24,000 bases of DNA from Promethearchaeota archaeon (GTDB lineage Archaea; Asgardarchaeota; Lokiarchaeia; Sigyniarchaeales; SOKP01). The notes beneath the pieces were generated by a model, which searched no databases, was not told the origin of the DNA, and saw only the letters and a list, made by a program, of their open reading frames with translations. A program made the translations under genes and the position numbers. The stretch spans positions 25,285 through 49,284 of the forward strand of contig SDNY01000009.1 of assembly GCA_004524535.1 (NCBI GenBank). Direction: 5' to 3'. Below are positions 1,015-19,453 of the stretch, piece after piece (position 1 is the stretch's first letter; each line of letters begins with the position of its first letter).

Positions 1015-1419
1015 TTATCTTCCTTCGAATATTTTAGCGAGATTTTTCGCTGCAATTCTCGTAACTTTTACAGTCTTCATTAATGTGTCAATAACAGTTC
1101 CAGCACATACAATTACTAAGCGACCTGCGTTTGTGATAACAATATATCCATCCTCAGCTCTTACAATGACTTCACTTAAATCTTCTTCAAATAATCTTTG
1201 AATTGTTGATCTTCCTGTCATTAAGAGGGCGCTAGCAAGACCACAAAACTGATCTCCATCCACATGATATTGTGGCAGAGCAGAAAAGGCAATTTGGTAT
1301 CCCTCTTGTGACACAAGAGCAATAGCCTCAATATCTGCGTTTGAAGTTATAAATGTAATTTGAGGGCTGATTTTTTCAATATCATCGTTTGTAATTCCCA
1401 AGTCGCTACCGAACTGCAT
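1015..1419 (-). CDS. Roadblock/LC7 (MglB-like) domain protein
   Basis: 134-aa single-domain ORF. The pattern ADIEAIALVSQEGYQIAFS ... GLASALLMTGRSTIQRL ... LSEVIVRAEDGYIVITNAGRLVIVCAGTVIDTL fits the Roadblock/LC7 alpha-beta-beta-alpha-beta-beta-beta-alpha family consensus as I recall it. Not verified by search. Confidence 0.75.
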   Translation of the reverse strand: MQFGSDLGITNDDIEKISPQITFITSNADIEAIALVSQEGYQIAFSALPQYHVDGDQFCGLASALLMTGRSTIQRLFEEDLSEVIVRAEDGYIVITNAGRLVIVCAGTVIDTLMKTVKVTRIAAKNLAKIFEGR

Positions 1420-1696: not shown

Positions 1697-4003
1697 ATGA
1701 TAACAACTAGAGAATCTATTAATTATCAATTTTCTTTAATTTTTGGATATTCATCTCCAAATGATTTAATAGCAGGAGATATAATTGGTCCTGGTAAATT
1801 AACAAAAGATAGAGTAAAAGCGCTTTCAATAGAAGTTTTGAAATTTTTTAGAATGTATAATGCAATGCTAAGAGACTATACCGGATCTGAAATTTTTAGT
1901 ATCGAGTTCTCATTGCATAACATTGATGAGAAAGATGCTCAGATGAAAATATATCCTAAATCAATGATCTTTATTCCGGGTAAATATAAAGAATGTGAAA
2001 GTTTATTACTTGCTTTAAAACCTGAAACAGGAGTTTTAAATACTCATAGATCTAGAAAAGAATTAATTAAGATAAGTAATCTATTTTTTGAAGTTGAAGA
2101 ATTTATTAATCGCCCTGATTTAGAAAGAAAAGAAAAAGAACAAATAATTAACGAGTTTGCTGCTCGTTTTAGCATGAAACTTTATGGAAAATTAATTGAA
2201 GATAAATGGAATAAGAAATTAATAGGATTTAGCACATCACTTCCAACAGAGAAAGAAATGTTAGATACATTTGCTTCAATAAAGTCTAAAATGGAAATAA
2301 TATGGTATAATAGACCATATGAGATGATAATTTCAGATTCAAAATTTGAAAAAATAAAAACACCATTTAAAGAGCAAACTGCTATTGATCATCTTAAATT
2401 TTCAATATCAGCACCTAGTGCTAATTTTGTTATCGAAAAGACTTTTATACTTGGTACAAATCTTATAGATCTGGCTAATACTGGTACAATAGACGAATCT
2501 CAAGAGGAGATTATTTCTTATCTTATCGGTTATTTGGAAGATAAAATTAGTAATGTTAAAGAAAAATGGTCAGTAAAAAGTCTTATTTCAGAAATCACAA
2601 AGATTTTAAGCGATTTAAAGAGTATTTTTAATAAATTTTTCGGATACTCTAATGATTTTCTAACTACTGGAGAAATAGGTACCTTAACTGAACTTTTAGG
2701 TAAATATAAACAGTTTATTTTAGAAAAAGGAATACTAGAAAACAAAAATTTCGAGGACTTTTGTAATTTAGCAATTAATTCTATTAAGCAATCAATTATT
2801 AAAATTGAAAAGTTAAGGGTAATTGAATTAAAATCAGTAATATATTATTTTTCAGAGCGATTTAAAAATAGTATCTTGTTAATTAAGGAGGCATTACCAA
2901 AATATCTTTCTCGGAGAATGTTAAAGACATCAACTATAGAATTTATAAAAGAAATAAAAGAAATTTTACAAGAAGAACAGAACCCAGTGAAAATTTTAAG
3001 TAATAAATATTTAGAAAAATTTTACTCATATCTTCTTAATCAAATTGAAATAAACCCCTTGATTTCAAAAAAAGATTTCAAATTTAATGAGGAAAAGTTG
3101 ATAAAAGAATTTTCAGATTTAATAAAAAGAAGTTATCAAAATTTTTTTGATACAATTGATTTAAATATTACTGATTTAGTCTCGTTTGCTGAGGTTTTAA
3201 TGGAAAAAGATCGAAAAGTAATTAAATCACATATAGAAAAATTTAAAAAATATTCAGCTGAATTACATTTTTTATTAAGCTACATTTTGAGATATACAAC
3301 AATTAATCGTTATTTAAAAGAGGAATCCGATGAGGAGATATCTGATCCTGTTACTTTTGCTAATAGATTTCATCGTTTTCTGGAAAAACGAATGGGTGGA
3401 ATTGATTTAGCATGGAAATCCTACATACTTGAATGGATAAAAGATTATGCAAAAATTTTTTTTAAAACTGAAGAACAAAAAGATTGGAACTTAAAAGAAA
3501 CTTATAATAATTTTATTAACTACTTGGAGGATAAAGAATCAAGCGAACAAGAATTAGAGAAATTTTTAGAATTTTTAGATGGCTATATTGCTAAAATACC
3601 TAATGAAATAGAAAAAAGGCACTTATTAGAATTTTTTAGGCAATTCGATTTTTGTATTAAAAATAAATTAGAATTCCCTAAATACTTAAAGAATAAAATA
3701 GAAGAAAAGATAAAATCATTAGATCCTAAACTCGAAGAATTAATTCCAGTTAAATTTTTTTATATTGAAAACGATAGTTTTTTCAAGTACTTACGTGAGA
3801 GGGAGTTAAAATATCTTTCAAAACTTATCCCTCAACCTACTACGTTAATATTAAAACATAATTTAACGAATGAAGAAAAAGAATTGTTTAATGCTGATCT
3901 CTTCCATGTTTTTAATTTTAGATTTTGGGGAAAAGATAATGTTAAAATAGAATTAGCAGATAATTTTAAAGAAGTTCATCGTGAATGGGTGAAAGAATTG
4001 TGA
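1697..4003 (+). CDS. Hypothetical large protein (768 aa), predicted mostly alpha-helical, no recognisable domain
   Basis: A 2.3-kb stop-free frame in very AT-rich DNA. The start is preceded by an AT-rich TATA-like tract (ttttataa at about 1663-1670). The 3' end overlaps the next ORF by 19 nt. No Walker A motif, TM segment or Cys/His cluster seen. Confidence 0.85.
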   Translation: MITTRESINYQFSLIFGYSSPNDLIAGDIIGPGKLTKDRVKALSIEVLKFFRMYNAMLRDYTGSEIFSIEFSLHNIDEKDAQMKIYPKSMIFIPGKYKECESLLLALKPETGVLNTHRSRKELIKISNLFFEVEEFINRPDLERKEKEQIINEFAARFSMKLYGKLIEDKWNKKLIGFSTSLPTEKEMLDTFASIKSKMEIIWYNRPYEMIISDSKFEKIKTPFKEQTAIDHLKFSISAPSANFVIEKTFILGTNLIDLANTGTIDESQEEIISYLIGYLEDKISNVKEKWSVKSLISEITKILSDLKSIFNKFFGYSNDFLTTGEIGTLTELLGKYKQFILEKGILENKNFEDFCNLAINSIKQSIIKIEKLRVIELKSVIYYFSERFKNSILLIKEALPKYLSRRMLKTSTIEFIKEIKEILQEEQNPVKILSNKYLEKFYSYLLNQIEINPLISKKDFKFNEEKLIKEFSDLIKRSYQNFFDTIDLNITDLVSFAEVLMEKDRKVIKSHIEKFKKYSAELHFLLSYILRYTTINRYLKEESDEEISDPVTFANRFHRFLEKRMGGIDLAWKSYILEWIKDYAKIFFKTEEQKDWNLKETYNNFINYLEDKESSEQELEKFLEFLDGYIAKIPNEIEKRHLLEFFRQFDFCIKNKLEFPKYLKNKIEEKIKSLDPKLEELIPVKFFYIENDSFFKYLRERELKYLSKLIPQPTTLILKHNLTNEEKELFNADLFHVFNFRFWGKDNVKIELADNFKEVHREWVKEL

Positions 4004-6402
4004 TTACTGGGATAAAAAGAAAAACTACGGCTATAGAAAGTACATTTAGATTTTTTCAAACTGTTGATTTAATAATTAATCACTTTAAAAGAGAGGCGGA
4101 CAAACAGAAAATATATGAATTAACTGATTCATTTAATAAAGAAACAACTCTTAAAGATTTTTTAATTGCTACAGCCTCCATTCATTTATACCATAATATA
4201 GGTATCAGAGTTGAAGAAAGCAATGAAATAGACCAAATGACAGTTGATTCGACTAAGAATTTGGAGATTTTGGAAAAAAAAATATTATTTGACGAATTAA
4301 GTTTAATTCTAAAAGATTCCTTAAATTTAGAAATAGATCTTCTTAATAGATTAATTAATTTAGAAAATAAAGTTATATCTTTTTTAATTGAAGAAAGGAA
4401 ATCAACCTTAAAAGATCTTGAAAAAAAACGCATGATAAAAGCAATAGAAGATCGTATTGAACAAGATTTAATAGAGATTGTATTAAAATATCCTCCATTC
4501 TACTTTTACGATTTAATTGGTGATTTAATTGGTTTCACAGATAAGATCAAATTAGAGATATTAGATGAAAGTTCTGCTTTTAAAGACTTGTCTATTGAGT
4601 TAGAAAAGAAATTAAAAGGGAAAGAGAAGGAAGATAAAGTCATTGAACTATCTACTCTGAACAGATTAATTGAGAAAATTCAGACAATTTTTGAATTTAA
4701 ATCTTACAAAGAATTACAAACGCAAGCTATGCCTGTAAGGATGATTAAACGAAAAGTGATGGAGTATAATCTTAACCGTTTTCCAATTTCTATTCCCGGC
4801 TTAAATACCTTTCTAAAGGCAAATAATATAAAAAAACAACTAATTGAAAAAATTGGTATAGCTCTTAAAGAAAAAATTAATTACGAGCAATTTGAAAAAG
4901 ATACGTTATTGTTTTTAAAGTCAGAAATAATCAAACAACTCAAAACAAATCCAAATGATTTTATATACTTTCTGCAAAATTTAAATGAAAGCAGTTTCAG
5001 AGAAATAATTTATATGCTAAATAAATACGGACTCTATAATATTTTACACCTAATTAATGCGGATGATAACTTAATACAAAAAATTAAACAAAATATGATT
5101 AGGTACAATATTGACAAATTTAATATAGTTGATTTAAATAAAGAAGAGAAAAATTTAATTTTCCTAGCTAAAAACGCCATAAGTACTTTAGATGTTCCAT
5201 CCCTCAACAACATAAGAAAAAAATTTGATGATTTAGACGAGATTAATTTATTGAAATTATTAAACCAAGATTATAAGGCGCTCGATGAATTATGGAAAAT
5301 AATAGAAGAAAAAATAGGATGTTCGATTAATGATTTTCGCGAATACGTAAGAAAAAAAGAAATAATTGATCGAGTTTTTCTTCAAGATTTAAAATTAAAC
5401 TCCTATTCGCAGATTTTAACTCTCTTAAATTTTGAAGAAATTATTAATAATTTAACGAAGCAAATTTATTTTTATATCTTTTCAAAAATTGTAAGACAAA
5501 TTAGTAGAATTATTGAAATTTATTTAAAAATTTCTAATGAAAAAGCATTGTTCCTTCTTGCCTTAAAAAAAATGGATGGGACGACAGAGTCCGAAAAGTG
5601 GATTTGGATTAAACTAGAAGAGCTAATTATCGTCCGAATAATAGCAATGCAAAAAGAACTAGTTGTAATTTTTAATGCTTTAAATCAACCATTTTTAGTA
5701 AATGGGTTTATTTTTGCTAGATTGACAAACTTATCTTTAAATGAGGGCATAAATGAATTTAAAGAAAAACCAAGTCTAATTTTTGAAAAAATTAAACCAT
5801 TAAGGTTAAATGCAGATATAATTTCTCCAGTTTCTTACTGTATTGCTTATGATTTAATTAAAAAATTTGAACAGGTTGAGGAAAAACGTAAATTAAAAGT
5901 TATACAGATCATAGAATCTAAAGAAAAAGAAAAAGAAAAGAAAAAAGAAGAAATTAGAAAAAAACAAGAAATTAATACTTTAAATTGGATTGAAAGAAGA
6001 ATAACCTCTTCGCTTATGAGAATAAATAGTCCAGGTATCAATCCAAATCAGTTGTATTGGCAAGAAAAAGATACAAAAACGGCTATTGATAACATTAAAC
6101 TTCATAGCGAATTAAAAGGAAATACTCTTGATTTATTTTCTGAATTTTTTCATTTTGCTGTTGAAAAAATTAAATTATTTGCCAAAGAAATGAAATTGCC
6201 TAACTATGAGATCATAAACAATATTGTAGTTGATATTTCTGAAAAAATATTAGAGGGAAGATTGGGGCATGCTCCCTCATCTCAAGAAATAGAAACTATG
6301 CTTGAAGGGGAAAGGTTTGAAATAGCAAAACAAATTTCTATTAGAATTGGGAAGATGTTAGATAAAGCTTTATATTCCAAATTTAAAAAAAAGGGAAGAT
6401 AG
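3985..6402 (+). CDS. Hypothetical large protein (805 aa), predicted mostly alpha-helical with a poly-Lys/Glu tract, no recognisable domain
   Basis: A 2.4-kb stop-free frame. The ATG at 3985 directly follows an in-frame TGA (3982-3984) and lies inside the last codons of the upstream ORF (stop 4001-4003), which indicates translational coupling. A KEKEKEKKKEEIRKKQE low-complexity tract lies at about 5920-5970. Confidence 0.85.
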   Translation: MGERIVITGIKRKTTAIESTFRFFQTVDLIINHFKREADKQKIYELTDSFNKETTLKDFLIATASIHLYHNIGIRVEESNEIDQMTVDSTKNLEILEKKILFDELSLILKDSLNLEIDLLNRLINLENKVISFLIEERKSTLKDLEKKRMIKAIEDRIEQDLIEIVLKYPPFYFYDLIGDLIGFTDKIKLEILDESSAFKDLSIELEKKLKGKEKEDKVIELSTLNRLIEKIQTIFEFKSYKELQTQAMPVRMIKRKVMEYNLNRFPISIPGLNTFLKANNIKKQLIEKIGIALKEKINYEQFEKDTLLFLKSEIIKQLKTNPNDFIYFLQNLNESSFREIIYMLNKYGLYNILHLINADDNLIQKIKQNMIRYNIDKFNIVDLNKEEKNLIFLAKNAISTLDVPSLNNIRKKFDDLDEINLLKLLNQDYKALDELWKIIEEKIGCSINDFREYVRKKEIIDRVFLQDLKLNSYSQILTLLNFEEIINNLTKQIYFYIFSKIVRQISRIIEIYLKISNEKALFLLALKKMDGTTESEKWIWIKLEELIIVRIIAMQKELVVIFNALNQPFLVNGFIFARLTNLSLNEGINEFKEKPSLIFEKIKPLRLNADIISPVSYCIAYDLIKKFEQVEEKRKLKVIQIIESKEKEKEKKKEEIRKKQEINTLNWIERRITSSLMRINSPGINPNQLYWQEKDTKTAIDNIKLHSELKGNTLDLFSEFFHFAVEKIKLFAKEMKLPNYEIINNIVVDISEKILEGRLGHAPSSQEIETMLEGERFEIAKQISIRIGKMLDKALYSKFKKKGR

Positions 6403-6511: not shown

Positions 6512-6766
6512 ATGTCGTGGATTAAAAAGCAAATACAATATTTAATAGAATCTATATGGCAGATGATCCAAGGGTTTATTTTATTTTCCCTGGCGTTCTC
6601 TGGTTTAGGATGTGCGCTATTATTAAGGCATGTTGGATATAATGGAATCGTTATTTCTGGGGTTAGTATTGTTGTTGAGGGAATTGCATTAGTTTTATGT
6701 TATTTCTTATTTAAGCGTTATTTAAAAATAGAAGAAATTAAAGTACCTGAGTCAAAAAAAAAGTAA
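6512..6766 (+). CDS. Small membrane protein (84 aa, two predicted TM helices)
   Basis: Two hydrophobic stretches (GFILFSLAFSGLGCALLL and GIVISGVSIVVEGIALVLCYFLF) followed by a charged tail. Same strand as the two giant ORFs and 109 nt downstream of them. Confidence 0.55.
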   Translation: MSWIKKQIQYLIESIWQMIQGFILFSLAFSGLGCALLLRHVGYNGIVISGVSIVVEGIALVLCYFLFKRYLKIEEIKVPESKKK

Positions 6767-6787: not shown

Positions 6788-7522
6788 CTACACAAGATTC
6801 TCCCAATTTCTTTTTATTTTATGAGAGATTAGATAATCTTTAATATCATTCAATAGGATTTCTGGATTATATTCCCAGGCTTCGTATTTATTAAATGAAA
6901 TACATTTTAAATGTTTTATTTGGAGAATTTGTTTAATTAAAAGCCCATAAACAGCTACTTGTGGAAGTGAGACTATAAAATTACCCTCTGGCTTATAATC
7001 TATTATTTTTATCATGTTATTTTGAATTTGAATCAAATCAATATGTCCTGTAATGTTTATACCATTTTTAGTCATCCAGATTGGAACCTCAATAGCTATA
7101 GAGTCCTTATCCTTAATTAAGATATTTTTTAAAATAGGATTATGCCCCGGTTTCTTATTTAACTGATTTCTATGAAATGCATTGTATACTTTTTGAGCAT
7201 AATTTGGTAATTTGGTGTTTGAGTCAAATTTTATAATCTTCCCTGAACGAATTAAGTTCTTACTAAAACTCCTCAGAAATGCATTATTAAGACCTCTAAT
7301 CTTAAATTGAGAAACTCTAGGAAGATCCTTTCTGTTAAATAAATTATTTGGTATTACCCCTTGATAGACTTTTTTAAGATAGATTCCAAGTTTTCTATAC
7401 TCTTCTTGATTAGAATTTAATTGATTAAGTTTTTCTTTATGGTTTTTTAGATTCCAATTAAAACTATATTTAATATTTTGATGATAAAAATCACGATGCT
7501 TTAGCATTGATTTTGAAACCAT
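6788..7522 (-). CDS. PD-(D/E)xK nuclease, RecB/Cas4-like core without a Cys cluster
   Basis: The C-terminal half carries the ordered motifs E (IAIEVPIW), D (ITGHIDLIQ), D-x-K (IKIIDYKPEG) and QxxxY (LPQVAVYGLL). This is the canonical RecB-family nuclease motif set. The four Cas4 Fe-S cysteines are absent. Confidence 0.65.
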   Translation of the reverse strand: MVSKSMLKHRDFYHQNIKYSFNWNLKNHKEKLNQLNSNQEEYRKLGIYLKKVYQGVIPNNLFNRKDLPRVSQFKIRGLNNAFLRSFSKNLIRSGKIIKFDSNTKLPNYAQKVYNAFHRNQLNKKPGHNPILKNILIKDKDSIAIEVPIWMTKNGINITGHIDLIQIQNNMIKIIDYKPEGNFIVSLPQVAVYGLLIKQILQIKHLKCISFNKYEAWEYNPEILLNDIKDYLISHKIKRNWENLV

Positions 7523-7785: not shown

Positions 7786-7860
7786 GGGCCTATAGCCAAG
7801 CCTGGATATGGCGTCGGACTTCTAATCCGAAGATCGCAGGTTCGAATCCTGCTAGGCCCG
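7786..7860 (+). tRNA. tRNA-Arg (anticodon UCU)
   Basis: Manual cloverleaf. Acceptor GGGCCTA/TAGGCCC. D arm GCCA-AGCCTGGATA-TGGC. Anticodon arm TCGGA-CTTCTAA-TCCGA with TCT at 7821-7823. Variable loop AGATC. T arm GCAGG-TTCGAAT-CCTGC. Discriminator G at 7860. No encoded CCA. The gene is a GC-rich island in AT-rich DNA. Confidence 0.92.
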
Positions 7861-7878
7861 CTAAAGAGATTCCAAAGA

Positions 7879-8111: not shown

Positions 8112-9131
8112 TTGACATATGAAAAGAAAAAAGAGTCAGATTTATTTCAGAACTTAACGATGCAAAAGAAAGAACTTAATGAAGCAAAAGAAAGAATTTC
8201 GGAGGTTACAAAAGAATTAAATGTGTATAAGAATAAAGAAACAGAATTAAATGGTAAGATTCAAGAACTTCAAGCTGGAACTCAAAAATTTCAAGCAGAA
8301 ATTCAAAAACTCCAAGCTGAAATTGAAATTTCAAAGGAAAAAGTAAAAAATTTAGATCTCTTAAATGAGAGAATTGATTCCTTAGAAAATGAAAAGAGTA
8401 ATTTAAATAAGAAATTAGAATTAAAAGAAAAAAAAATTGAAGAATTACTTCAAGATAAGGAGATTTTATTAAAAGAAAAATCTGACATATTAGAAAGTAA
8501 AAATGAAATTTTAGAGCAAGTAAAAAAAAAAGAATTAGAATTACAAGAAAAAGAGCAAAAACTTGAAGATTTAAAGGAAAAATTCAAACAATCAAGTTCA
8601 GACCTTCTTAGTAAAACTATGGAAATTGATAAGTTAAGAAAAAAAGACGAGAGTTTGAAAGTCCAAAATGATTTACAGAAATCCCAATTAAAAAAAAAGG
8701 AAGAATTGGAAAAAGAGTTAACTGGTGGCACTCGAGTGATTTCGAGTATAGAGGATTTATTTGAAATAATAAAAGAAGTTTTACCTCAAGCTAAAAGTAG
8801 TATAAGGCTAGTTGTACCTGATATTCAAGATATAAATAAATTTAATTTGATAGATACAATTAAGGAAATACCAAATAAAGTTAGACTAAATATTGCAGCA
8901 AAAATTGACGATCCATTAGGCGATGATCTTTCTAGGGAGTTAAGAAACTATTGTCAATTAACAAATTATTTCGAAAAAAGAATTATTGCGTTATTTGTAG
9001 ATTCCTCAATAATTTTGATTGGAATTTTTAAAGGTATGAATGTAATTGGTATTTATTCGGAATTATTAGAAATTATAGAAATATTAAAGCCAGCTATAAT
9101 GGAACCTTTCATAAAAGGTATTAAAATTTAA
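8112..9131 (+). CDS. Coiled-coil protein (about 200 aa of heptad-rich helix) with a C-terminal globular domain of unknown function
   Basis: The ORF track start is TTG at 8112, 11 nt after a GAGGTG Shine-Dalgarno-like site (8095-8100). The first in-frame ATG is at 8160 and has no SD. The N-terminal two-thirds are K/E/L/Q-rich with heptad periodicity. The C-terminal ~135 aa (GTRVISSIEDLFEIIKEVLPQAKSSIRLVVPDIQ...) have an alternating beta/alpha character. Confidence 0.75.
   Translation: MTYEKKKESDLFQNLTMQKKELNEAKERISEVTKELNVYKNKETELNGKIQELQAGTQKFQAEIQKLQAEIEISKEKVKNLDLLNERIDSLENEKSNLNKKLELKEKKIEELLQDKEILLKEKSDILESKNEILEQVKKKELELQEKEQKLEDLKEKFKQSSSDLLSKTMEIDKLRKKDESLKVQNDLQKSQLKKKEELEKELTGGTRVISSIEDLFEIIKEVLPQAKSSIRLVVPDIQDINKFNLIDTIKEIPNKVRLNIAAKIDDPLGDDLSRELRNYCQLTNYFEKRIIALFVDSSIILIGIFKGMNVIGIYSELLEIIEILKPAIMEPFIKGIKI
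8268..8330 (+). repeat. Three in-frame 21-bp tandem repeats inside the coiled-coil gene, encoding LQAGTQK / FQAEIQK / LQAEIEI
   Basis: cttcaagctggaactcaaaaa (8268-8288), tttcaagcagaaattcaaaaa (8289-8309) and ctccaagctgaaattgaaatt (8310-8330). Each unit is one heptad. Confidence 0.7.
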
Positions 9132-13206: not shown

Positions 13207-13310
13207 TGGTGCGGGGAGGGGGCTTCGAACCCCCGACCTCACGGTTTCCAGCCGTACTTATCAAGTTACGGTTATCAGCCGTGCGCTATACCAGGCTAAG
13301 CCATCTCCGC
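13207..13310 (-). tRNA. tRNA-Ile (anticodon GAU) with a 27-nt intron at the canonical 37/38 position and a genomically encoded CCA
   Basis: Reverse complement: GCGGAGA TG GCTT AGCCTGGTA TAGC G CACGG CTGATA[ACCGTAACTTGATAAGTACGGCTGGAA]A CCGTG AGGTC GGGGG TTCGAAG CCCCC TCCCCGC A CCA. The anticodon GAT is the complement of 13274-13276. The short variable loop and A73 are consistent with Ile. The geometry matches a bulge-helix-bulge motif: outer helix 5 bp, central helix 4 positions, two 3-nt bulges, inner helix 5 bp. Confidence 0.8.
13246..13272 (-). other. tRNA-Ile intron (27 nt, position 37/38)
   Basis: Removing ACCGTAACTTGATAAGTACGGCTGGAA restores a 5-7-5 anticodon arm, CACGG-CTGATAA-CCGTG. 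The intron forms an inner helix CCGTA/TACGG. Sequence redundancy allows the exact junction to slide by a few nt without changing the product. Confidence 0.7.
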
Positions 13311-13478: not shown

Positions 13479-13910
13479 ATGCCGAATATTTTAAATTATT
13501 CAATAATAGGATTACAAGATTTTAGTATTAGCTTTGAGAGTTATTGCCGACAGTGTGAAATTCAAAGACATTGTAAATATGGAAAAGAAGAACCATTTAC
13601 TGTAAAAATTAATTGTAATGATTTAAATAGAGCTAAGGAAAAAATAAAACTCGAGCAGCTCCAAAAGCTTCAAAAGAAGGAGGATGTTTCCGTTCCTTAT
13701 GAGGACCTTATTAAAAAAGTAAAGATCAACTTGCAAGGTATATTTTCTACAATATGGAAAGACAAAATTAAATCTCATAAGGAAGAAATTAGATGTTTAG
13801 ATTCTCGAAAAGTTGATTCAATGTTAGTAGGTCAACAGGGTCAAGATTGGTGGAGCGATTTTAACTCAACAATGAAAGTTATTAACGCAGAATGCGAAAA
13901 GATTCTTTAA
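13479..13910 (+). CDS. Hypothetical protein (143 aa) with an N-terminal CxxCx5C cysteine motif
   Basis: The ORF has coding-like composition. It contains CRQCEIQRHC near the N-terminus and a central K/E/Q-rich helix. I recognise no family. Confidence 0.5.
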   Translation: MPNILNYSIIGLQDFSISFESYCRQCEIQRHCKYGKEEPFTVKINCNDLNRAKEKIKLEQLQKLQKKEDVSVPYEDLIKKVKINLQGIFSTIWKDKIKSHKEEIRCLDSRKVDSMLVGQQGQDWWSDFNSTMKVINAECEKIL

Positions 13911-14011: not shown

Positions 14012-14638
14012 ATGATGATTTTAAACTTCAATTTAGACAGCCATAAAAATATTGGTGTAGAAGTTTTAAGCGGATTAGAAAATTGGTGCAAGGAATTTAA
14101 TGATTTTGCCTTAACTTTTTTTATTTTTTTAAAATATATTTTTGTTTTAATATTAATAACTATAGGGATATTGACCTTATTAAAATTAAAAGGAATTTAC
14201 CTTCAAGTAAGAACTAAAGATTTGGAAAAAAAGGAAGATCGTCTAAAGTATCTTCGATTATTTATGGGTTGGACATATATTTTTTTAGGTCTTGGAATTT
14301 TATTTAACTATTTAATATATTTTTTAATATGGGTATTGGAACCATTACCAGATAGATTTATATTTAGATTTTTAAATTTTCACGGAAAAATTAATCCAGA
14401 GCATATTAATAGAATAAAAGATATTAATGCTTCGAAATATCCTCATGAAAAGTCAATTTATTATTGCATTGCTATTGCTTCTTTCATTTCCACTTTAGAT
14501 TTAATTTTAAGTGTGTGGTATCTAATAAATAATAATCGTGTTATCAGTAAACCACGAGCTGTAATTATGAATTTAGTGGGGTCTGTTATGGGAGTAATAA
14601 TGTTTGGAATAACAACTTTCCTACCTTTTTTTCTATAA
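14012..14638 (+). CDS. Hypothetical integral membrane protein (208 aa, about 4 TM helices)
   Basis: Hydrophobic segments: FALTFFIFLKYIFVLILITIGILTLL, LFMGWTYIFLGLGILFNYLIYFLIWVL, IYYCIAIASFISTLDLILSVWYL and IMNLVGSVMGVIMFGITTFLPFF. Confidence 0.6.
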   Translation: MMILNFNLDSHKNIGVEVLSGLENWCKEFNDFALTFFIFLKYIFVLILITIGILTLLKLKGIYLQVRTKDLEKKEDRLKYLRLFMGWTYIFLGLGILFNYLIYFLIWVLEPLPDRFIFRFLNFHGKINPEHINRIKDINASKYPHEKSIYYCIAIASFISTLDLILSVWYLINNNRVISKPRAVIMNLVGSVMGVIMFGITTFLPFFL

Positions 14639-14701: not shown

Positions 14702-16219
14702 TTAGACTAAAGTACTAATAGGTTCTTCCATTTCAATATTATTCTCATCAAGGAATTTTATTAATTCGTTTCTTTGTTTCTTAAGAATTGATGTCTTAGC
14801 TAAAAATAATCCAAATCCCTCTTTCTTATTTTTTTCATATTTGTACCGGTCAATTTCTAGATGTTTTTCCACAAATAGATTTATACTGTCTCTTAAAGAC
14901 AAATGTGAGCTTGGTCTTATTGCAAATGCCCCTAGTTTTAGTGTTCTCATATCCTTCCACCATTCTGGAAAATATACTTTAGTCCCATATCTTTGATTAA
15001 GAATCTCTAATTTTTCATAATTCGCTGTTTTTGCAAACAGGTGATATAATATTGGCACGAAATTAAATAAGTCATTATTGTCTTTCTCCGCAATGTTTGA
15101 TAGATAAGTAAATGATTCTTGAATTGTTTCTCTTGTTTCTCCTGGATGATTGGAAATTAGTCCGAATGAACATTTATATTCTAAATTTTTATGAATAGCG
15201 ATAACATTTTCAAGTTGATTTAAAAAATTAGTAGGATTATGAGTCTTATTCATTATTCCCAATATTCTTTTAGAAAAAGTTTCCACTCCATAAAATTGAA
15301 ACATCTTCTTTTTTTGAAGATTAGAAATCAATTGTTCATTGAGTATATCTATTCGGGTTTCAACAAAATGATGGATAACTTCCTCATCGACTTTATATAG
15401 ATCAAGAAATTTATTTAGCCAATTTTTATTATAGCCGAAACAGGGATCGAGAAAACCATAATATTTGATGTCTTGATTAAGTCCATAATTTATTATCGTG
15501 TTTATTTCTTGGACTGCCCTTTTGGGAGTGTATGACCTCCATCGTTTAATTTTTTTACCCTTAGCAAGACTTTCTTCAATACAATAAGAACAGTTATGAG
15601 GGCACCCACGACTAAGCGATATACTTAGTCCCCTTGCTTGTGTCCTTATGTAATCTATATATTTGTCCAATAGTGTTATATCTAAAGGAGGGAGGTCGTC
15701 TAGCCTATTAAAGGGAGTTCCTTCTATAATTGTTGGAATCCTTTTTTTCTTTCTCTCGTTGGAAATCAAATGATATAGTGCACTCTCTCCCTCGCCAATA
15801 ACGACATAATCAAAAGGAGAATTGGAATAAATAAAATCATTTGGACAGCTAGAGGCATGGTATCCTCCAGAAACTATTATTGATTCAGGAAAATTATGTT
15901 GAAGATATTCAGCAATTAATTTCATTCCCAGATAATCAAAGGATATTCCAGAAATACAAATATAAGTTTTATTATCCAAGTTAAAGTCTAGTTTTGAAAT
16001 AGCATTATCTAAAACTAAATGAATTTTTTTTAGATTATTAATTGAGAGAAAGTCGCCTGAAACATTATTTTCTGCAGGAAGATATATAACATCTGTAACA
16101 ATATTATTAATTCTTGCATTTAAGTAATTTTCTAAATATATAAACCACATAAGAAGTTCGTTAGAGAGATTTTTTTTCACAAATTGAAATGGTTGGATAA
16201 AGAGGACTTTTTTTGGCAT
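14702..16219 (-). CDS. B12-binding-domain radical SAM enzyme (class B rSAM), substrate unknown
   Basis: N-terminal cobalamin-binding-like Rossmann region (KKVLFIQP ... ICISGISFDY ... IIVSGGYHASS ... FDYVVIGEGE), followed by the radical SAM cluster motif SRGCPHNCSYC (CxxxCxxC). Paralogous to the upstream gene. Confidence 0.85.
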   Translation of the reverse strand: MPKKVLFIQPFQFVKKNLSNELLMWFIYLENYLNARINNIVTDVIYLPAENNVSGDFLSINNLKKIHLVLDNAISKLDFNLDNKTYICISGISFDYLGMKLIAEYLQHNFPESIIVSGGYHASSCPNDFIYSNSPFDYVVIGEGESALYHLISNERKKKRIPTIIEGTPFNRLDDLPPLDITLLDKYIDYIRTQARGLSISLSRGCPHNCSYCIEESLAKGKKIKRWRSYTPKRAVQEINTIINYGLNQDIKYYGFLDPCFGYNKNWLNKFLDLYKVDEEVIHHFVETRIDILNEQLISNLQKKKMFQFYGVETFSKRILGIMNKTHNPTNFLNQLENVIAIHKNLEYKCSFGLISNHPGETRETIQESFTYLSNIAEKDNNDLFNFVPILYHLFAKTANYEKLEILNQRYGTKVYFPEWWKDMRTLKLGAFAIRPSSHLSLRDSINLFVEKHLEIDRYKYEKNKKEGFGLFLAKTSILKKQRNELIKFLDENNIEMEEPISTLV

Positions 16220-16237: not shown

Positions 16238-17812
16238 TTATAGTCCTTCAGATATTTTACCTAATTTATCAAAATCTTTTTTAAATCCAATGAATTTTGG
16301 GAAGGAATAGAAAGAATTTTTCAATTTTGTCTGAGTCCTAAATACGCTTTTAACAAAATCCTTTGTTGCCTTTAGACCTTGTTTGAATGATAAATTCTCA
16401 CTTGGGTCGAGAATACATCCAAATCCAGGCTGGTCTGAATCGAATATTTTCCACCACTCTTTATAATAATATTTTGCTCCAAACATTTCTTCCCCTTTAT
16501 CATAGATCTCATTACCAGTAAAAAGTTCAAATGGAAAGAATTCTAAATTAATTTTATATTTCTCCATTAAAGGAACAGCTCCATTATTTTTCTCAAAAAA
16601 GAAAGCCCATCTTTCATTTAATGTTTTCTTGTCTGTTCCTGGTATTCCTAATAAATAAAAATATACAACTGCAATATCCATTTTATTAGAATACTTAATA
16701 ATTTCCCTTGTCTTTTTTAAATAATTTTTTCCTCCATTATCAATTTGCAAAGCATTTTTTCCAGATATCTTCCCCATTCTGGTCAATAACTTTTTGGAAA
16801 CCGATTCTAATCCAAGACCAAGAATCATATTATATTTTTTATAATTATCTAAGTCTTTCAGAGTAGTAGTTTCCACACGATCAAAAACATTAATTCTAAA
16901 GTTTATTTTTTCAGATAATTTCTCTAATTCTTCAAAAAATCTATCCCGCATACTTCTTTTAGGAAAGAACATTGAATCAATTATATGTAATTGCCTAATT
17001 TTTAGCCAATCTGTATTGATAATTGATTTTAAATCTGCAATACAATTTTCTATGGACCTAGATCTTACTTTTTTACACGCTTTAGAATAATTTTCAGAAG
17101 GGAGGCAAAACTTACAACGGAAAGCACAACCTCTTGTAAAACGAATGTAGAAGCTTCCAATTCCTTTAATAGCATTTTTATATTTTTTATACAATTCGAG
17201 ATTAAGAGGTGGAAGCTCATCTAAGTTTTCTAAGCATTCTCCTTCTAAAATAATCGGATTTTCATTTAGATTTTTTCTACGCTTTATTGTTCCGCTTAAT
17301 GAATTTTGAACAAAATTAAAAAATGGGATCTCTCCTTCATCAATTATTATATAATCGAAAGGAGAGCAATTTTTTGGGTAAAAATTATCGAAATATGAAG
17401 GGATATTTTGAGAGTAAAAGTTTTTAGGAAAAATTGATGGATGAACGCCACCTACCACAATATCACACTCTGGATTAATAAAATGCTTTATCACGCTCGC
17501 AACCTCAACAGAATTAAGATATGCGAAATCTGAATAACATGAGATAGCTGCAATATCGAATTTGAAGCGTTCATAAATATTATATAAAAGTTCTTTTAGA
17601 GCGTTTCTATATTCATCTATATTTGCCGGCCAATAATCAAGTTGAGGTTCTATCCTTAAATCAAGATATTCCTCTTGGATATCTCCATTTAATTCAGTTT
17701 TTTTTGAATTCAAATAATTTGAGAATCTTATAAAAGGTTCAGTACAAATTTGAGGTGAGAAACAGAAAAATAAATAAGGGTGTATATAAAGAATTCTTTT
17801 TGTATTAGACAT
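16238..17812 (-). CDS. B12-binding-domain radical SAM enzyme (class B rSAM), paralog of the downstream gene, substrate unknown
   Basis: Motifs KRILYIHP ... AAISCYSDF ... DIVVGGVHPS ... FDYIIIDEGE, then TRGCAFRCKFC (CxxxCxxC). I prefer the ATG at 17812 (MSNTKRILYIHP) because it aligns with the paralog N-terminus MPKKVLFIQP. The ORF track extends to an upstream ATG at 17857 (15 extra codons). An 18-nt gap to the next gene implies an operon. Confidence 0.85.
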   Translation of the reverse strand: MSNTKRILYIHPYLFFCFSPQICTEPFIRFSNYLNSKKTELNGDIQEEYLDLRIEPQLDYWPANIDEYRNALKELLYNIYERFKFDIAAISCYSDFAYLNSVEVASVIKHFINPECDIVVGGVHPSIFPKNFYSQNIPSYFDNFYPKNCSPFDYIIIDEGEIPFFNFVQNSLSGTIKRRKNLNENPIILEGECLENLDELPPLNLELYKKYKNAIKGIGSFYIRFTRGCAFRCKFCLPSENYSKACKKVRSRSIENCIADLKSIINTDWLKIRQLHIIDSMFFPKRSMRDRFFEELEKLSEKINFRINVFDRVETTTLKDLDNYKKYNMILGLGLESVSKKLLTRMGKISGKNALQIDNGGKNYLKKTREIIKYSNKMDIAVVYFYLLGIPGTDKKTLNERWAFFFEKNNGAVPLMEKYKINLEFFPFELFTGNEIYDKGEEMFGAKYYYKEWWKIFDSDQPGFGCILDPSENLSFKQGLKATKDFVKSVFRTQTKLKNSFYSFPKFIGFKKDFDKLGKISEGL

Positions 17813-18058
17813 TATAACTTCTTTCTTTTTTTTTAACTTGAATCTAAGTATGTTCATAATTTAAAATACTGATATAAAAAGTCATAGAAAAATGAAATGG
17901 AAAACTTAAAAATGGAGTAGTTTAAATGGAAAAACTAGAATATAGTAAAAATGAAATTTTTTTTTAATAAAAAATATACTTTAGGTTAAAATCATAACAA
18001 AGAAAGGAGTATTCCTTTTTTTAGTGGATTAGCTATCTATTAATAAGTAAGGATTGGG

Positions 18059-19453
18059 ATGATTAAGCTTCAAAAACCAGTTAATGGGGAATTAGTAAGT
18101 CAAATTATTAGTTATTTAAAGAAGAAAGGAGAAATAAGAGCAACACTCCTTTCTAAATTAGAAAAACGATTTTGTGAATCTAAATCAGAGTTTAAAGTCA
18201 AAAAAGAGGATTTAATTTCTTGTTTACTTTTTATGATGAATGAGAGAATAGTTGAGATTATAATTCCAGAACCTTTCCAAATTAATTGGGAGGAACGATT
18301 TTTAAAAAATCTTAAATTTTTAAAGGACAGCGATTATCTTGTGAGGCAATTTTCGAATTTAAACGAAAACATATTTGATTCATATGAAAAAAATGCCTAT
18401 TTTTTCGATTCAAGATTATTAGATTTTAAAAATCGAGACGCTTCTTCGGAGGCCATAAAAAATTTAAAAGTTATAATTAAAAAAGTTCCTAAAATTAAGA
18501 GTAAGATAATTATTTATTATCCTCCTAGTAGTAAACCATTAAATATTTATGAGACATTTGAGGGGAATTACAATATAGAATTTCTGGATTTTAAAGTAAA
18601 TCCTGAATTTAATTTAAATCCTCTCCTTAAAATTGAAATTCCTTTAGACCAGCAAAAATCAGACTTGGCTATAATTCAGAGCTATAGAAAAAACTATATG
18701 TGTATGTATATCACATTAATTGAATCGATTCATAAAGCTATTATGAATGTTCAAAAAAAAAAAGAAAAATCTAAAAATTATAATGAAATTCTAAAAGATC
18801 TAATTAGAAAATTCGGTTATTATTGTTATATGTATGTAAGGTCCGATTGGATTGATGTTAAACCTAATCCTTATAGATGGGAATCATTTTTCGAATTTTT
18901 TGACCTTCCTTTTAAAATTATTGATCTTTCATTTAATAATATTAGATTTTATGGGAGAACATTTGAATTTTGGATAAGATTCAATTATTGTATATTTATT
19001 CAAAAAAAGTTTAAAAATATTATATTAAAATTAAAAGAATTAGGATTTGAAGAGTTTGAGAAAGAGAATTACGGAGATTATATTGCAATAGGTATGGATC
19101 ATGAAATCTATGAGGTATGTCCTTCAATTGAATATTTTTACTTTTTGAATAAATATATTTTTTTTTATCATTTATTTTATTTATTTTTCCACTCTTTTCC
19201 CTATATTGAGAAATTAAAACCTCAAGTTAAGTTTTCCGAAAAAGAACAAAAACTTTACAGAATATTTTTACCAGTAATGGAATCTATGTTAAATGTTCAA
19301 GAGAAGAGAATTATTAAAAAACTGATATTTAATTATTATACTTTCAATCCTAATGAATTAGAGATAATATACCATAAATTCTTATTAGATGAAGTTAAAT
19401 TTATAGAAAAAAAAATGTTTAATTACTTTTTAATCAGATATAGTAAATGTTAA
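18059..19453 (+). CDS. Hypothetical protein (464 aa), aromatic-rich, with a possible N-terminal winged-helix-like segment
   Basis: A 1.4-kb open frame. The N-terminus LVSQIISYLKKKGEIRATLLSKLEKRF resembles a wHTH recognition region, though weakly. The remainder is F/Y/I/K-rich with no motif I recognise. It is divergent from the rSAM operon. Confidence 0.7.
   Translation: MIKLQKPVNGELVSQIISYLKKKGEIRATLLSKLEKRFCESKSEFKVKKEDLISCLLFMMNERIVEIIIPEPFQINWEERFLKNLKFLKDSDYLVRQFSNLNENIFDSYEKNAYFFDSRLLDFKNRDASSEAIKNLKVIIKKVPKIKSKIIIYYPPSSKPLNIYETFEGNYNIEFLDFKVNPEFNLNPLLKIEIPLDQQKSDLAIIQSYRKNYMCMYITLIESIHKAIMNVQKKKEKSKNYNEILKDLIRKFGYYCYMYVRSDWIDVKPNPYRWESFFEFFDLPFKIIDLSFNNIRFYGRTFEFWIRFNYCIFIQKKFKNIILKLKELGFEEFEKENYGDYIAIGMDHEIYEVCPSIEYFYFLNKYIFFYHLFYLFFHSFPYIEKLKPQVKFSEKEQKLYRIFLPVMESMLNVQEKRIIKKLIFNYYTFNPNELEIIYHKFLLDEVKFIEKKMFNYFLIRYSKC

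Follow-up and report, generated by a model that had tools for sequence, protein, structure and literature searches.

Of the prokaryotes known so far, the Asgard archaea are most closely related to eukaryotes, and attention has been directed mostly to their eukaryote-like proteins. One of their loci raises a different question: what is a pair of adjacent genes, each encoding a protein of around 90 kDa, that is conserved across Lokiarchaeota and Thorarchaeota no less than a tRNA-modification enzyme and is opaque to homology and fold comparison? The locus lies in a stretch of 24,000 nucleotides from a Promethearchaeota archaeon of the class Lokiarchaeia (assembly GCA_004524535.1, contig SDNY01000009.1, positions 25,285 to 49,284 of the forward strand), called here the window, and its two open reading frames are designated ORF1 and ORF2. 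A preliminary description, made from the letters of this DNA alone, saw in them a translationally coupled pair of helical proteins lacking known domains, and suggested for them either a scaffold associated with a neighbouring Roadblock protein or an accessory, defence-type module. The analysis presented here indicates that they probably encode a conserved two-subunit complex specific to Asgard archaea. The elements concerned are the following.

Positions 1697–4003, plus strand: ORF1, 768 amino acids (aa), 91 kDa, isoelectric point (pI) 6.9.
Positions 3982–4003, plus strand: stop/start junction, with TGA at 3982–3984, ATG at 3985, GGGTGA at 3987–3992, GTG at 4000 and the ORF1 stop codon TGA at 4001–4003.
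Positions 3985–6402 or 4000–6402, plus strand: ORF2, 805 aa when read from ATG 3985, or 800 aa from GTG 4000.
Positions 5917–5970, plus strand: Lys/Glu-rich tract of ORF2 (S645–E662), within a predicted 65-residue helix (615–679).

Both frames are real protein-coding genes, since their open length is beyond chance and their ratios of non-synonymous to synonymous substitution (dN/dS) are low. At the composition of the window a random codon is a stop with a probability of 0.087, which gives a probability of about 3e-31 for 768 open codons. No open frame longer than 137 codons arose when the window was shuffled 200 times, compared with the 805 observed, and the two frames are put at 6–8 times the length of any frame in shuffled sequence. 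When the nearest relatives at species level are compared, ORF1 has a dN/dS of 0.19 and ORF2 one of 0.16–0.17; both genes are under purifying selection. The preliminary description had argued that such frames are not accidental, and had correctly read their lengths (768 and 805 codons), their overlap of 19 nucleotides (nt) and the TGA preceding ATG 3985.

The arrangement of the junction, cgTGAATGGGTGAAAGAATTGTGA, suggests that the synthesis of the two proteins is tightly coupled. Within the 19-nt overlap, a TGA in the frame of ORF2 stands immediately 5' of ATG 3985, and this ATG is itself embedded in the codons of the invariant ORF1 residues E763-W764 (GA-ATG-G). In 45 of 70 distinct junctions from relatives the two genes overlap as ATGA, where the ATG opens an ORF2 N-terminus of the form M-I-S/T-G-I/V-K-R-K and the TGA closes ORF1. 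The equivalent in the window is GTGA (GTG 4000, a 4-nt overlap), with the residues ITGIKRK after the start, and GGGTGA (3987–3992), which resembles an archaeal Shine-Dalgarno sequence in view of the 16S 3' end, lies 7 nt upstream of this GTG. Thus, the comparison with relatives makes GTG 4000 the likely start of ORF2. ATG 3985, which had been taken for the start, does not occupy the conserved position; it may be an alternative, and either start may serve. Among the junctions inspected, relatives with GAGTGG, and hence no upstream ATG, retain ATGA, and those lacking the downstream ATG have the upstream one, so that one start appears to make up for the lack of the other from species to species. 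In every inspected junction (equivalents of 3985–4003, L001–L084), an ATG occupies one or both of these positions. With either start, the geometry is the classic signature of coupling by termination and reinitiation, which we infer on this basis. It varies between Asgard classes, with overlaps of 1–19 nt or gaps of 3–4 nt. A programmed frameshift or a split gene was also considered, and was rejected because of this variable geometry and because no fused homologue appears among the matches (maximum match length 915 aa).

The best relatives of ORF1 and ORF2 are hypothetical proteins from metagenome-assembled genomes of Lokiarchaeota (Promethearchaeota in NCBI). An exhaustive HMMER search of 1.84 billion cluster representatives with the ORF1 profile gave 104 relatives; all those with a name belong to Asgard archaea: Lokiarchaeota, Helarchaeota, Thorarchaeota, Freyarchaeota or Jordarchaeia. 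No Heimdall, Odin, bacterial or eukaryotic label was found among the 30 clusters looked up, several of which are unlabelled. The cultured Ca. Lokiarchaeum ossiferum carries an ORF1 orthologue (NEF87_002840). When GTDB was scanned at one genome per species, 96 genomes proved to have ORF2 relatives, and 79 loci were taken for comparison; a search seeded by the ORF2 proteins of Thor-, Frey- and Jordarchaeia gave about 110 Thorarchaeota clusters.

The preliminary description had named conservation of the pair as a point to be checked. In all 75 Lokiarchaeota species loci with any upstream sequence, a homologue of ORF1 lies immediately 5' of the homologue of ORF2. The same pair, within 5 nt or overlapping, is found in L. 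ossiferum, two Thorarchaeota genomes, Freyarchaeota, Jordarchaeia and a divergent subgroup, and the ORF2 profile recognises their ORF2 homologues with E-values of 1e-35 to 1e-185. Between classes the proteins share only 14–36% identity, and strict adjacency maintained over such distances is the strongest evidence that ORF1 and ORF2 work together. Theirs is the only robust gene linkage at the locus. Across 26 Lokiarchaeota species, ORF1 proteins are on average 53.5% identical in pairwise comparison and ORF2 proteins 55.9%, compared with 48.4% for the tRNA methyltransferase Trm5, and the lengths of homologues are nearly fixed (765–775 aa and 795–806 aa, respectively). This conservation profile is that of a vertically inherited core component.

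Some further observations were made on these loci. A batch of metagenome-assembled genomes with JBHL... accessions (L006, L007, L022–L025, L039, L049, L068, L074, L078 and L080) is labelled as Thor-, Hod-, Hermod- or Odinarchaeota; their ORF1, ORF2 and Roadblock proteins are 55–97% identical to those of Lokiarchaeota genomes, including the window, and from these sequences the labels look unreliable. In the divergent subgroup (L090, 8001–12137; P0301, P0303, P0305, P0306, P0308 and P0309), the N-terminus of ORF1 reads HG..LVY.NKAMDL.SLS.N, and the ORF2 that follows is truncated to about 600 aa (602 aa), without the Lys/Glu-rich helix or the C-terminal third. This subgroup may encode a second, paralogous complex or else a variant belonging to one lineage. 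Both loci with an ORF1 of the Helarchaeota type (L087 and L091) have a divergent gene encoding an unknown protein of about 405 aa upstream and a histone-fold gene nearby.

Do these proteins belong to a known family? As the preliminary description had stated for motifs, Pfam, NCBIfam, PADLOC and PHROGs gave no match for either, and neither contains a Pfam or NCBIfam ATPase domain or a Walker A motif. When 63 relatives of ORF1 and 13 diverse relatives of ORF2 were run singly against Pfam, only scattered noise without a shared family was obtained. Profiles built from close and from diverse alignments returned nothing below E = 0.02 among PDB sequences, and Foldseek comparison of the predicted structures with the PDB gave no confident match. 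The Foldseek search of BFVD yielded nothing at E<0.1, and no relative was found in the viral contigs of IMG/VR. The two proteins were rejected as paralogues of each other (no BLASTP match, hhalign probability of 1.3%). Self-comparison with hhalign found no off-diagonal match above 2.1% probability that would indicate internal repeats, and an alpha-solenoid of the HEAT, ARM or TPR type received no repeat match in Pfam and no tandem repeats were detected. Searches of the literature and its supplements found no description of such a pair, nor the L. ossiferum locus tags or accessions. We place the pair outside all kinds of system known so far, although a finer structure comparison might link single domains to known folds, an outcome that a recent survey of archaeal proteomes holds to be usual (PMC13607799).

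Both AlphaFold2 models are of reasonable confidence. That of ORF1 (pLDDT 76.8, pTM 0.75) consists of an alpha/beta region up to residue ~220, a helical core (226–705) and a C-terminal beta-alpha-beta-beta-alpha module, with strands at 64–75, 89–93, 104–108, 190–219 and 710–755. In the model of ORF2 (pLDDT 82.4, pTM 0.69) all 35 secondary-structure elements are helices. Thus, the all-alpha or coiled architecture proposed for both proteins is predicted for ORF2, with its 65-residue helix, but not for ORF1, whose ends are predicted to be alpha/beta. Residues 1–33 of ORF1 and 1–22 of ORF2 have a pLDDT below 50 and yet belong to the most conserved segments (in ORF1, the ~35 N-terminal residues). 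Neither protein has a convincing transmembrane (TM) helix, in agreement with the earlier reading, since the Kyte-Doolittle maxima in 19-residue windows are 1.02 for ORF1 and 1.69 for ORF2.

The positions of ORF1 kept across classes are mainly hydrophobic and structural. Its stretch G27-x3-G31-x-G33-K is glycine-rich and is not a Walker A motif, and the lysine is not kept in other classes. In Thor-, Frey- and Jordarchaeia, ORF1 has an additional coiled-coil insert of ~100 residues ahead of the C-terminal beta module. ORF2 (~95 kDa, pI 8.9) retains a series of charged residues that are invariant over five Asgard classes at 18–36% identity (E104, E116, D176, K200, E221, R508, E511, E546 and D623), together with the motifs SRI(I/V)E.Y, EEL, PSP.(Y/F) and SY..A.D(L/I). 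The helix that contains the poly-KE tract, placed by the preliminary description near 5920–5970, is followed by a nearly invariant loop, TLNWIERRITSSLMRINSPGINPNQLYWQEKDTK / NSPGINPNQLYWQEKDTK. The absence of a Cys/His cluster holds for the window proteins, with three cysteines in ORF1 and two in ORF2; however, the ORF2 of L083, L. ossiferum and Jord-, Frey- and Thorarchaeia carries a zinc-knuckle-like CxxC-x8-CxxH insert, which has been cleanly deleted in the window's clade at ~6111–6120 (ORF2 residues ~709–712), as seen by comparison with L083, L085, L086, L088 and L089.

Taking into account that these are real genes, that they are tightly coupled, that the pair is widely conserved and that it matches no known family, a two-subunit complex is the natural inference. 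ORF1 and ORF2 would be the subunits of an ancient, vertically inherited complex restricted to Asgard archaea. Both would be translated from one mRNA, and termination-reinitiation at the overlapping stop and start would provide roughly equal amounts of the subunits, which would form a physical heterodimer of 1:1 stoichiometry. Each subunit would be a soluble, cytoplasmic and mostly helical body without a recognisable enzymatic or NTPase domain, and the conserved N-terminal ~35 residues, disordered in the models of the monomers, would fold on the partner or on a third component. The role of the complex would be that of a housekeeping scaffold or adaptor rather than of an accessory system. The genes around the pair, which bear on this role, are listed below with their occurrence in Lokiarchaeota loci.

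Positions 1015–1419, minus strand: Roadblock/LC7 protein, 134 aa (Pfam PF03259 Robl_LC7, 37.5 bits against a cut-off of 23, E = 1.9e-9); adjacent in 61 of 62 loci, divergent in 58 and downstream in 3 (co-directional after inversion).
Positions 1420–1696, no strand: AT-rich intergenic region of 277 bp, shared by the divergent Roadblock gene and ORF1, with presumed archaeal promoters.
Positions 6512–6766, plus strand: TM84, 84 aa, with hydrophobic helices at ~18–40 and 43–70, downstream of ORF2 and co-directional; adjacent downstream of ORF2 in 61 of 62 loci, split alignments corrected.
Positions 6788–7522, minus strand: PD-(D/E)XK nuclease, RecB/Cas4-like, 244 aa, convergent; adjacent in 62 of 62 loci, convergent and downstream in 59 and upstream in 3.

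The neighbours are therefore those that had been described (a Roadblock gene across 277 bp, a small protein with two TM helices and a convergent RecB-like nuclease), and in Lokiarchaeota they form a block in the order Roadblock (minus), ORF1, ORF2 and TM84 (plus), nuclease (minus). The three rearranged loci result from a single in-place inversion of ORF1-ORF2-TM84. Outside this group the block dissolves: the L. ossiferum locus keeps TM84 and two copies of the nuclease gene with no Roadblock gene nearby, and none of the three is adjacent to the pair in Thor-, Frey- or Jordarchaeia, the Roadblock gene of the last being 6.6 kb away. The suggestion that Roadblock and the nuclease could be conserved neighbours was thus borne out within Lokiarchaeota and failed beyond them. 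In addition, an unrelated TrpB-like PALP gene next to Roadblock is kept in 49 of 61 loci, which reflects a high background synteny; as this gene is nearly as conserved a neighbour, the adjacency of Roadblock may be inherited synteny, and synteny is weakened as evidence of partnership for both Roadblock and the nuclease. We consider the links to TM84 and the nuclease suggestive within Lokiarchaeia, and that to Roadblock the weakest.

In Lokiarchaeota, the encoding of TM84 alongside the pair hints that the complex might work at the cytoplasmic face of the membrane. A membrane-proximal scaffold or adaptor role is proposed only tentatively, and the whole explanation, taken jointly as a complex with such a role near the membrane, is given slightly less than an even chance. 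Several observations weigh against it. ORF1 of the Helarchaeota type (L087 and L091) stands alone, with no ORF2 homologue within 4–8 kb, and no fusion of the two genes occurs among the homologues. The mirror-tree analysis is uninformative, as correlations were 0.70–0.88 for all genes and the partial correlation of the pair (0.58) equals that of the controls (0.57 and 0.58). TM84 is missing from the Thor-, Frey- and Jordarchaeia loci, and a TATA-like sequence of its own precedes it in the window, so that it may be transcribed apart from ORF2. Finally, the invariant charged residues of ORF2 could mark a catalytic or ligand site instead of a scaffold.

This last point leads to the first of the alternatives, in which the pair would be a new kind of helical enzyme, with ORF2 catalysing a reaction through its invariant acidic and basic residues and ORF1 acting as its regulatory or structural partner. 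The persistence of these charges and of the accompanying motifs across five classes is what such an enzyme would lead one to expect, as is a conservation over the whole length that exceeds that of Trm5. However, neither sequence nor fold comparison has returned an enzyme family, and invariant charges can equally well be structural salt bridges. This alternative seems unlikely.

A similarly low probability is given to a nucleic-acid-associated complex that, together with the neighbouring nuclease, would take part in DNA-end processing, repair or chromatin organisation. The catalytic core of this nuclease is complete, with the motifs E-x-P, TGHxDL, DYKPEG and PQVxxY (Q-x3-Y) conserved in 26 orthologues; it matches Pfam PDDEXK_1 at E = 2.4e-4, narrowly missing the threshold, PADLOC Cas4-like models at 1.6e-5 and the PHROG exonuclease family at 5e-6. 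With a single cysteine, it has no Fe-S cluster of cysteines. Its presence beside the pair in every one of the 62 Lokiarchaeota loci and its duplication there in L. ossiferum and L083 suit a joint function, but the gene is usually convergent, hence not co-transcribed with the pair, and it is absent from the Thor-, Frey- and Jordarchaeia loci. The basic pI of ORF2 and its KRK N-terminus, as well as the CxxC-x8-CxxH insert outside the window's clade, would be compatible with binding to nucleic acids; on the other hand, family scans of ORF1 and ORF2 detect no DNA- or RNA-binding domain, and the loss of the zinc motif in the window's clade means that it is dispensable. Histone-fold genes lie ~1–2.5 kb away in L. 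ossiferum and in both Helarchaeota loci, although Asgard genomes hold several histone genes and this proximity may be due to chance.

The preliminary description had raised, as one hypothesis, a heterodimer possibly working with the Roadblock protein as a GTPase-regulatory or cytoskeleton-associated platform. In such a platform the pair would bind Roadblock and serve as a GEF, a GAP or a scaffold for one of the many Asgard small GTPases, by analogy with Ragulator-Rag or MglB-MglA. The analysis has not established such a platform, which we regard as improbable. It draws on the adjacency of the Roadblock gene in Lokiarchaeota and on the constraint of its product, whose mean pairwise identity in the 26 species (86.8%) exceeds that of the neighbouring proteins (48–58%), a level that fits a hub protein interacting with many partners; among solved structures it matches even its nearest relative only weakly (PDB 7f8m, a Robl_LC7 protein, E = 8e-6). 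Nevertheless, the adjacency is limited to one clade of Lokiarchaeota, being absent in L. ossiferum, Thorarchaeota, Freyarchaeota and Jordarchaeia, and background synteny, as illustrated by PALP, can account for it, the rearranged loci being a simple inversion. Comparison of the Roadblock profile with ORF1 and ORF2 by hhalign gave a probability below 1%, and Foldseek matched neither to longin, Roadblock, DENN or TRAPP structures. No GTPase gene is present in the cluster, and those found 1–9 kb away in some loci are compatible with chance, given their abundance in Asgard archaea. As a rule, Asgard archaea do not place their GTPase and Roadblock genes in shared operons (Tran et al. 2024, PMC10933270), and the lack of a GTPase gene here is therefore uninformative; the gene layout settles nothing either way.

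As to the defence-type module also proposed earlier, its superficial likeness to a defence island (large unknown proteins, a small membrane protein and a nuclease with a weak PADLOC Cas4-like match) has to be set against the lack of any PADLOC match for ORF1, ORF2 or TM84 and of any PHROGs, BFVD or IMG/VR relatives, the occurrence in no fewer than 96 species genomes, the constant syntenic place amid housekeeping genes in all loci examined, the conservation at housekeeping level and the uniform GC content, all of which bring this idea close to refutation.

The surroundings of the pair were also inspected. The window is AT-rich, with a GC content of 22–31%, and contains the housekeeping genes for TFB, the archaeosine tRNA-guanine transglycosylase (TGT), Trm5/Tyw2, DUF371, a Fap7-like AAA_18 kinase, NIF3 and HIT; RNase P, NFACT and PyrI are also encoded near the pair. 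In the intergenic region between Roadblock and ORF1, relatives (L009–L013 and L020) share an AT-rich block, AAAAGTAAATTTTAATACTTTATAAACTTAAAAA, ~110 nt 5' of ORF1, which contains a TATA-like element and corresponds to ~1575–1600 in the window. To judge from its sequence, this conserved block is likely to be a promoter. The window shows an apparent hairpin in this region that relatives do not share, and RNAalifold detects no conserved pairing there. A scan for bacterial promoters and terminators gave nothing above shuffled sequences, although such a scan is not applicable to archaea.

Just past the nuclease gene, a tRNA-Arg(TCT) occupies 7786–7861 (plus strand). Rfam finds only one other tRNA in the window, a match of 101 nt at 13210–13310 (minus strand) that was missed by ARAGORN and probably represents an archaeal tRNA with an intron. 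The minus strand encodes, in tandem, two paralogous B12-binding radical-SAM enzymes of 505 and 539 aa (14702–16219 and 16238–17857). An ORF of 339 aa with a TTG start (8112–9131, plus strand) combines an N-terminal coiled coil of ~230 residues with a C-terminal globular part; its matches to SMC, JetC and Rad50 are spurious, derived from the coiled coil, and it is kept only in the nearest relatives (L005, L007, L008, L019 and L065). Three further ORFs on the plus strand (18059–19453, 13479–13910 and 14012–14638; 464, 143 and 208 aa) have no Pfam match.

We know of few cases in which core, lineage-wide proteins of this size are without any recognisable domain. The function of the pair, once found, would therefore expose an unknown part of Asgard cell biology, and a remote structural link to a eukaryotic complex, if it emerged, would inform the picture of the archaeal ancestor. 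The presence of the pair in the cultured L. ossiferum makes it experimentally accessible. A bolder possibility, to which we attach limited confidence, is that of an undescribed ancient two-subunit machine with folds absent from solved structures, perhaps operating at the membrane with Roadblock and small GTPases, or through a helix-grip-like module for a ligand or lipid in ORF1, which eukaryotes either did not inherit or have altered beyond recognition. If this were true, the pair would belong to the cell organisation of Asgard archaea as a component peculiar to that lineage.

How does the pair compare with systems already known? Its true orthologues, among them NEF87_002840 / UniRef100_A0ABY6HSR7 in L. 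ossiferum and EU537_09350/09355 in Thorarchaeota, are database entries without name, domain or study. Among solved structures, the only recurring Foldseek matches of ORF1, weak and local, are to the Bet v1/SRPBCC (START-like) helix-grip fold (3q63, 2vne, 5n8q, 4igw, 4fpw, 2rer and 1x53); they extend over 40–70 columns with a root-mean-square deviation of ~2.3–2.5 Å and a probability of up to 0.5, but with E-values above 1 and a query TM-score of ~0.05. ORF1 gave no sequence signal for this fold, and in its model the long beta-strands of both ends could form one sheet. Asgard START proteins are small and have a single domain (PMC12139934), unlike ORF1.

Platforms built on Roadblock and longin domains (Ragulator-Rag, MglB-MglA, Mon1-Ccz1 and GATOR1 Nprl2/3) are likewise multi-subunit and cytoplasmic, and the pair has a Roadblock neighbour in Lokiarchaeota. 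They differ in that searches detect neither a Roadblock nor a longin domain in the two proteins, that the linkage does not extend to other Asgard classes and that the cluster lacks a GTPase.

The subunits of CATCHR complexes (exocyst, GARP and COG) and the CCDC22-CCDC93 pair of Commander are mostly helical proteins of 700–900 aa that pair via their N-terminal segments. The likeness of ORF1 and ORF2 to them is one of analogy only, in size, helicity and the possession of conserved N-termini that are disordered in monomer models. No match to them was obtained in Pfam or in Foldseek at E<0.1, a search of limited sensitivity; ORF1 differs from them by its alpha/beta modules at both ends, and the exhaustive HMMER search returned no eukaryotic homologue. 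Finally, whereas SMC, Rad50 and MukB proteins have ATPase heads and long coiled coils, ORF1 and ORF2 are modelled instead as compact helical bodies (pTM 0.69–0.75).

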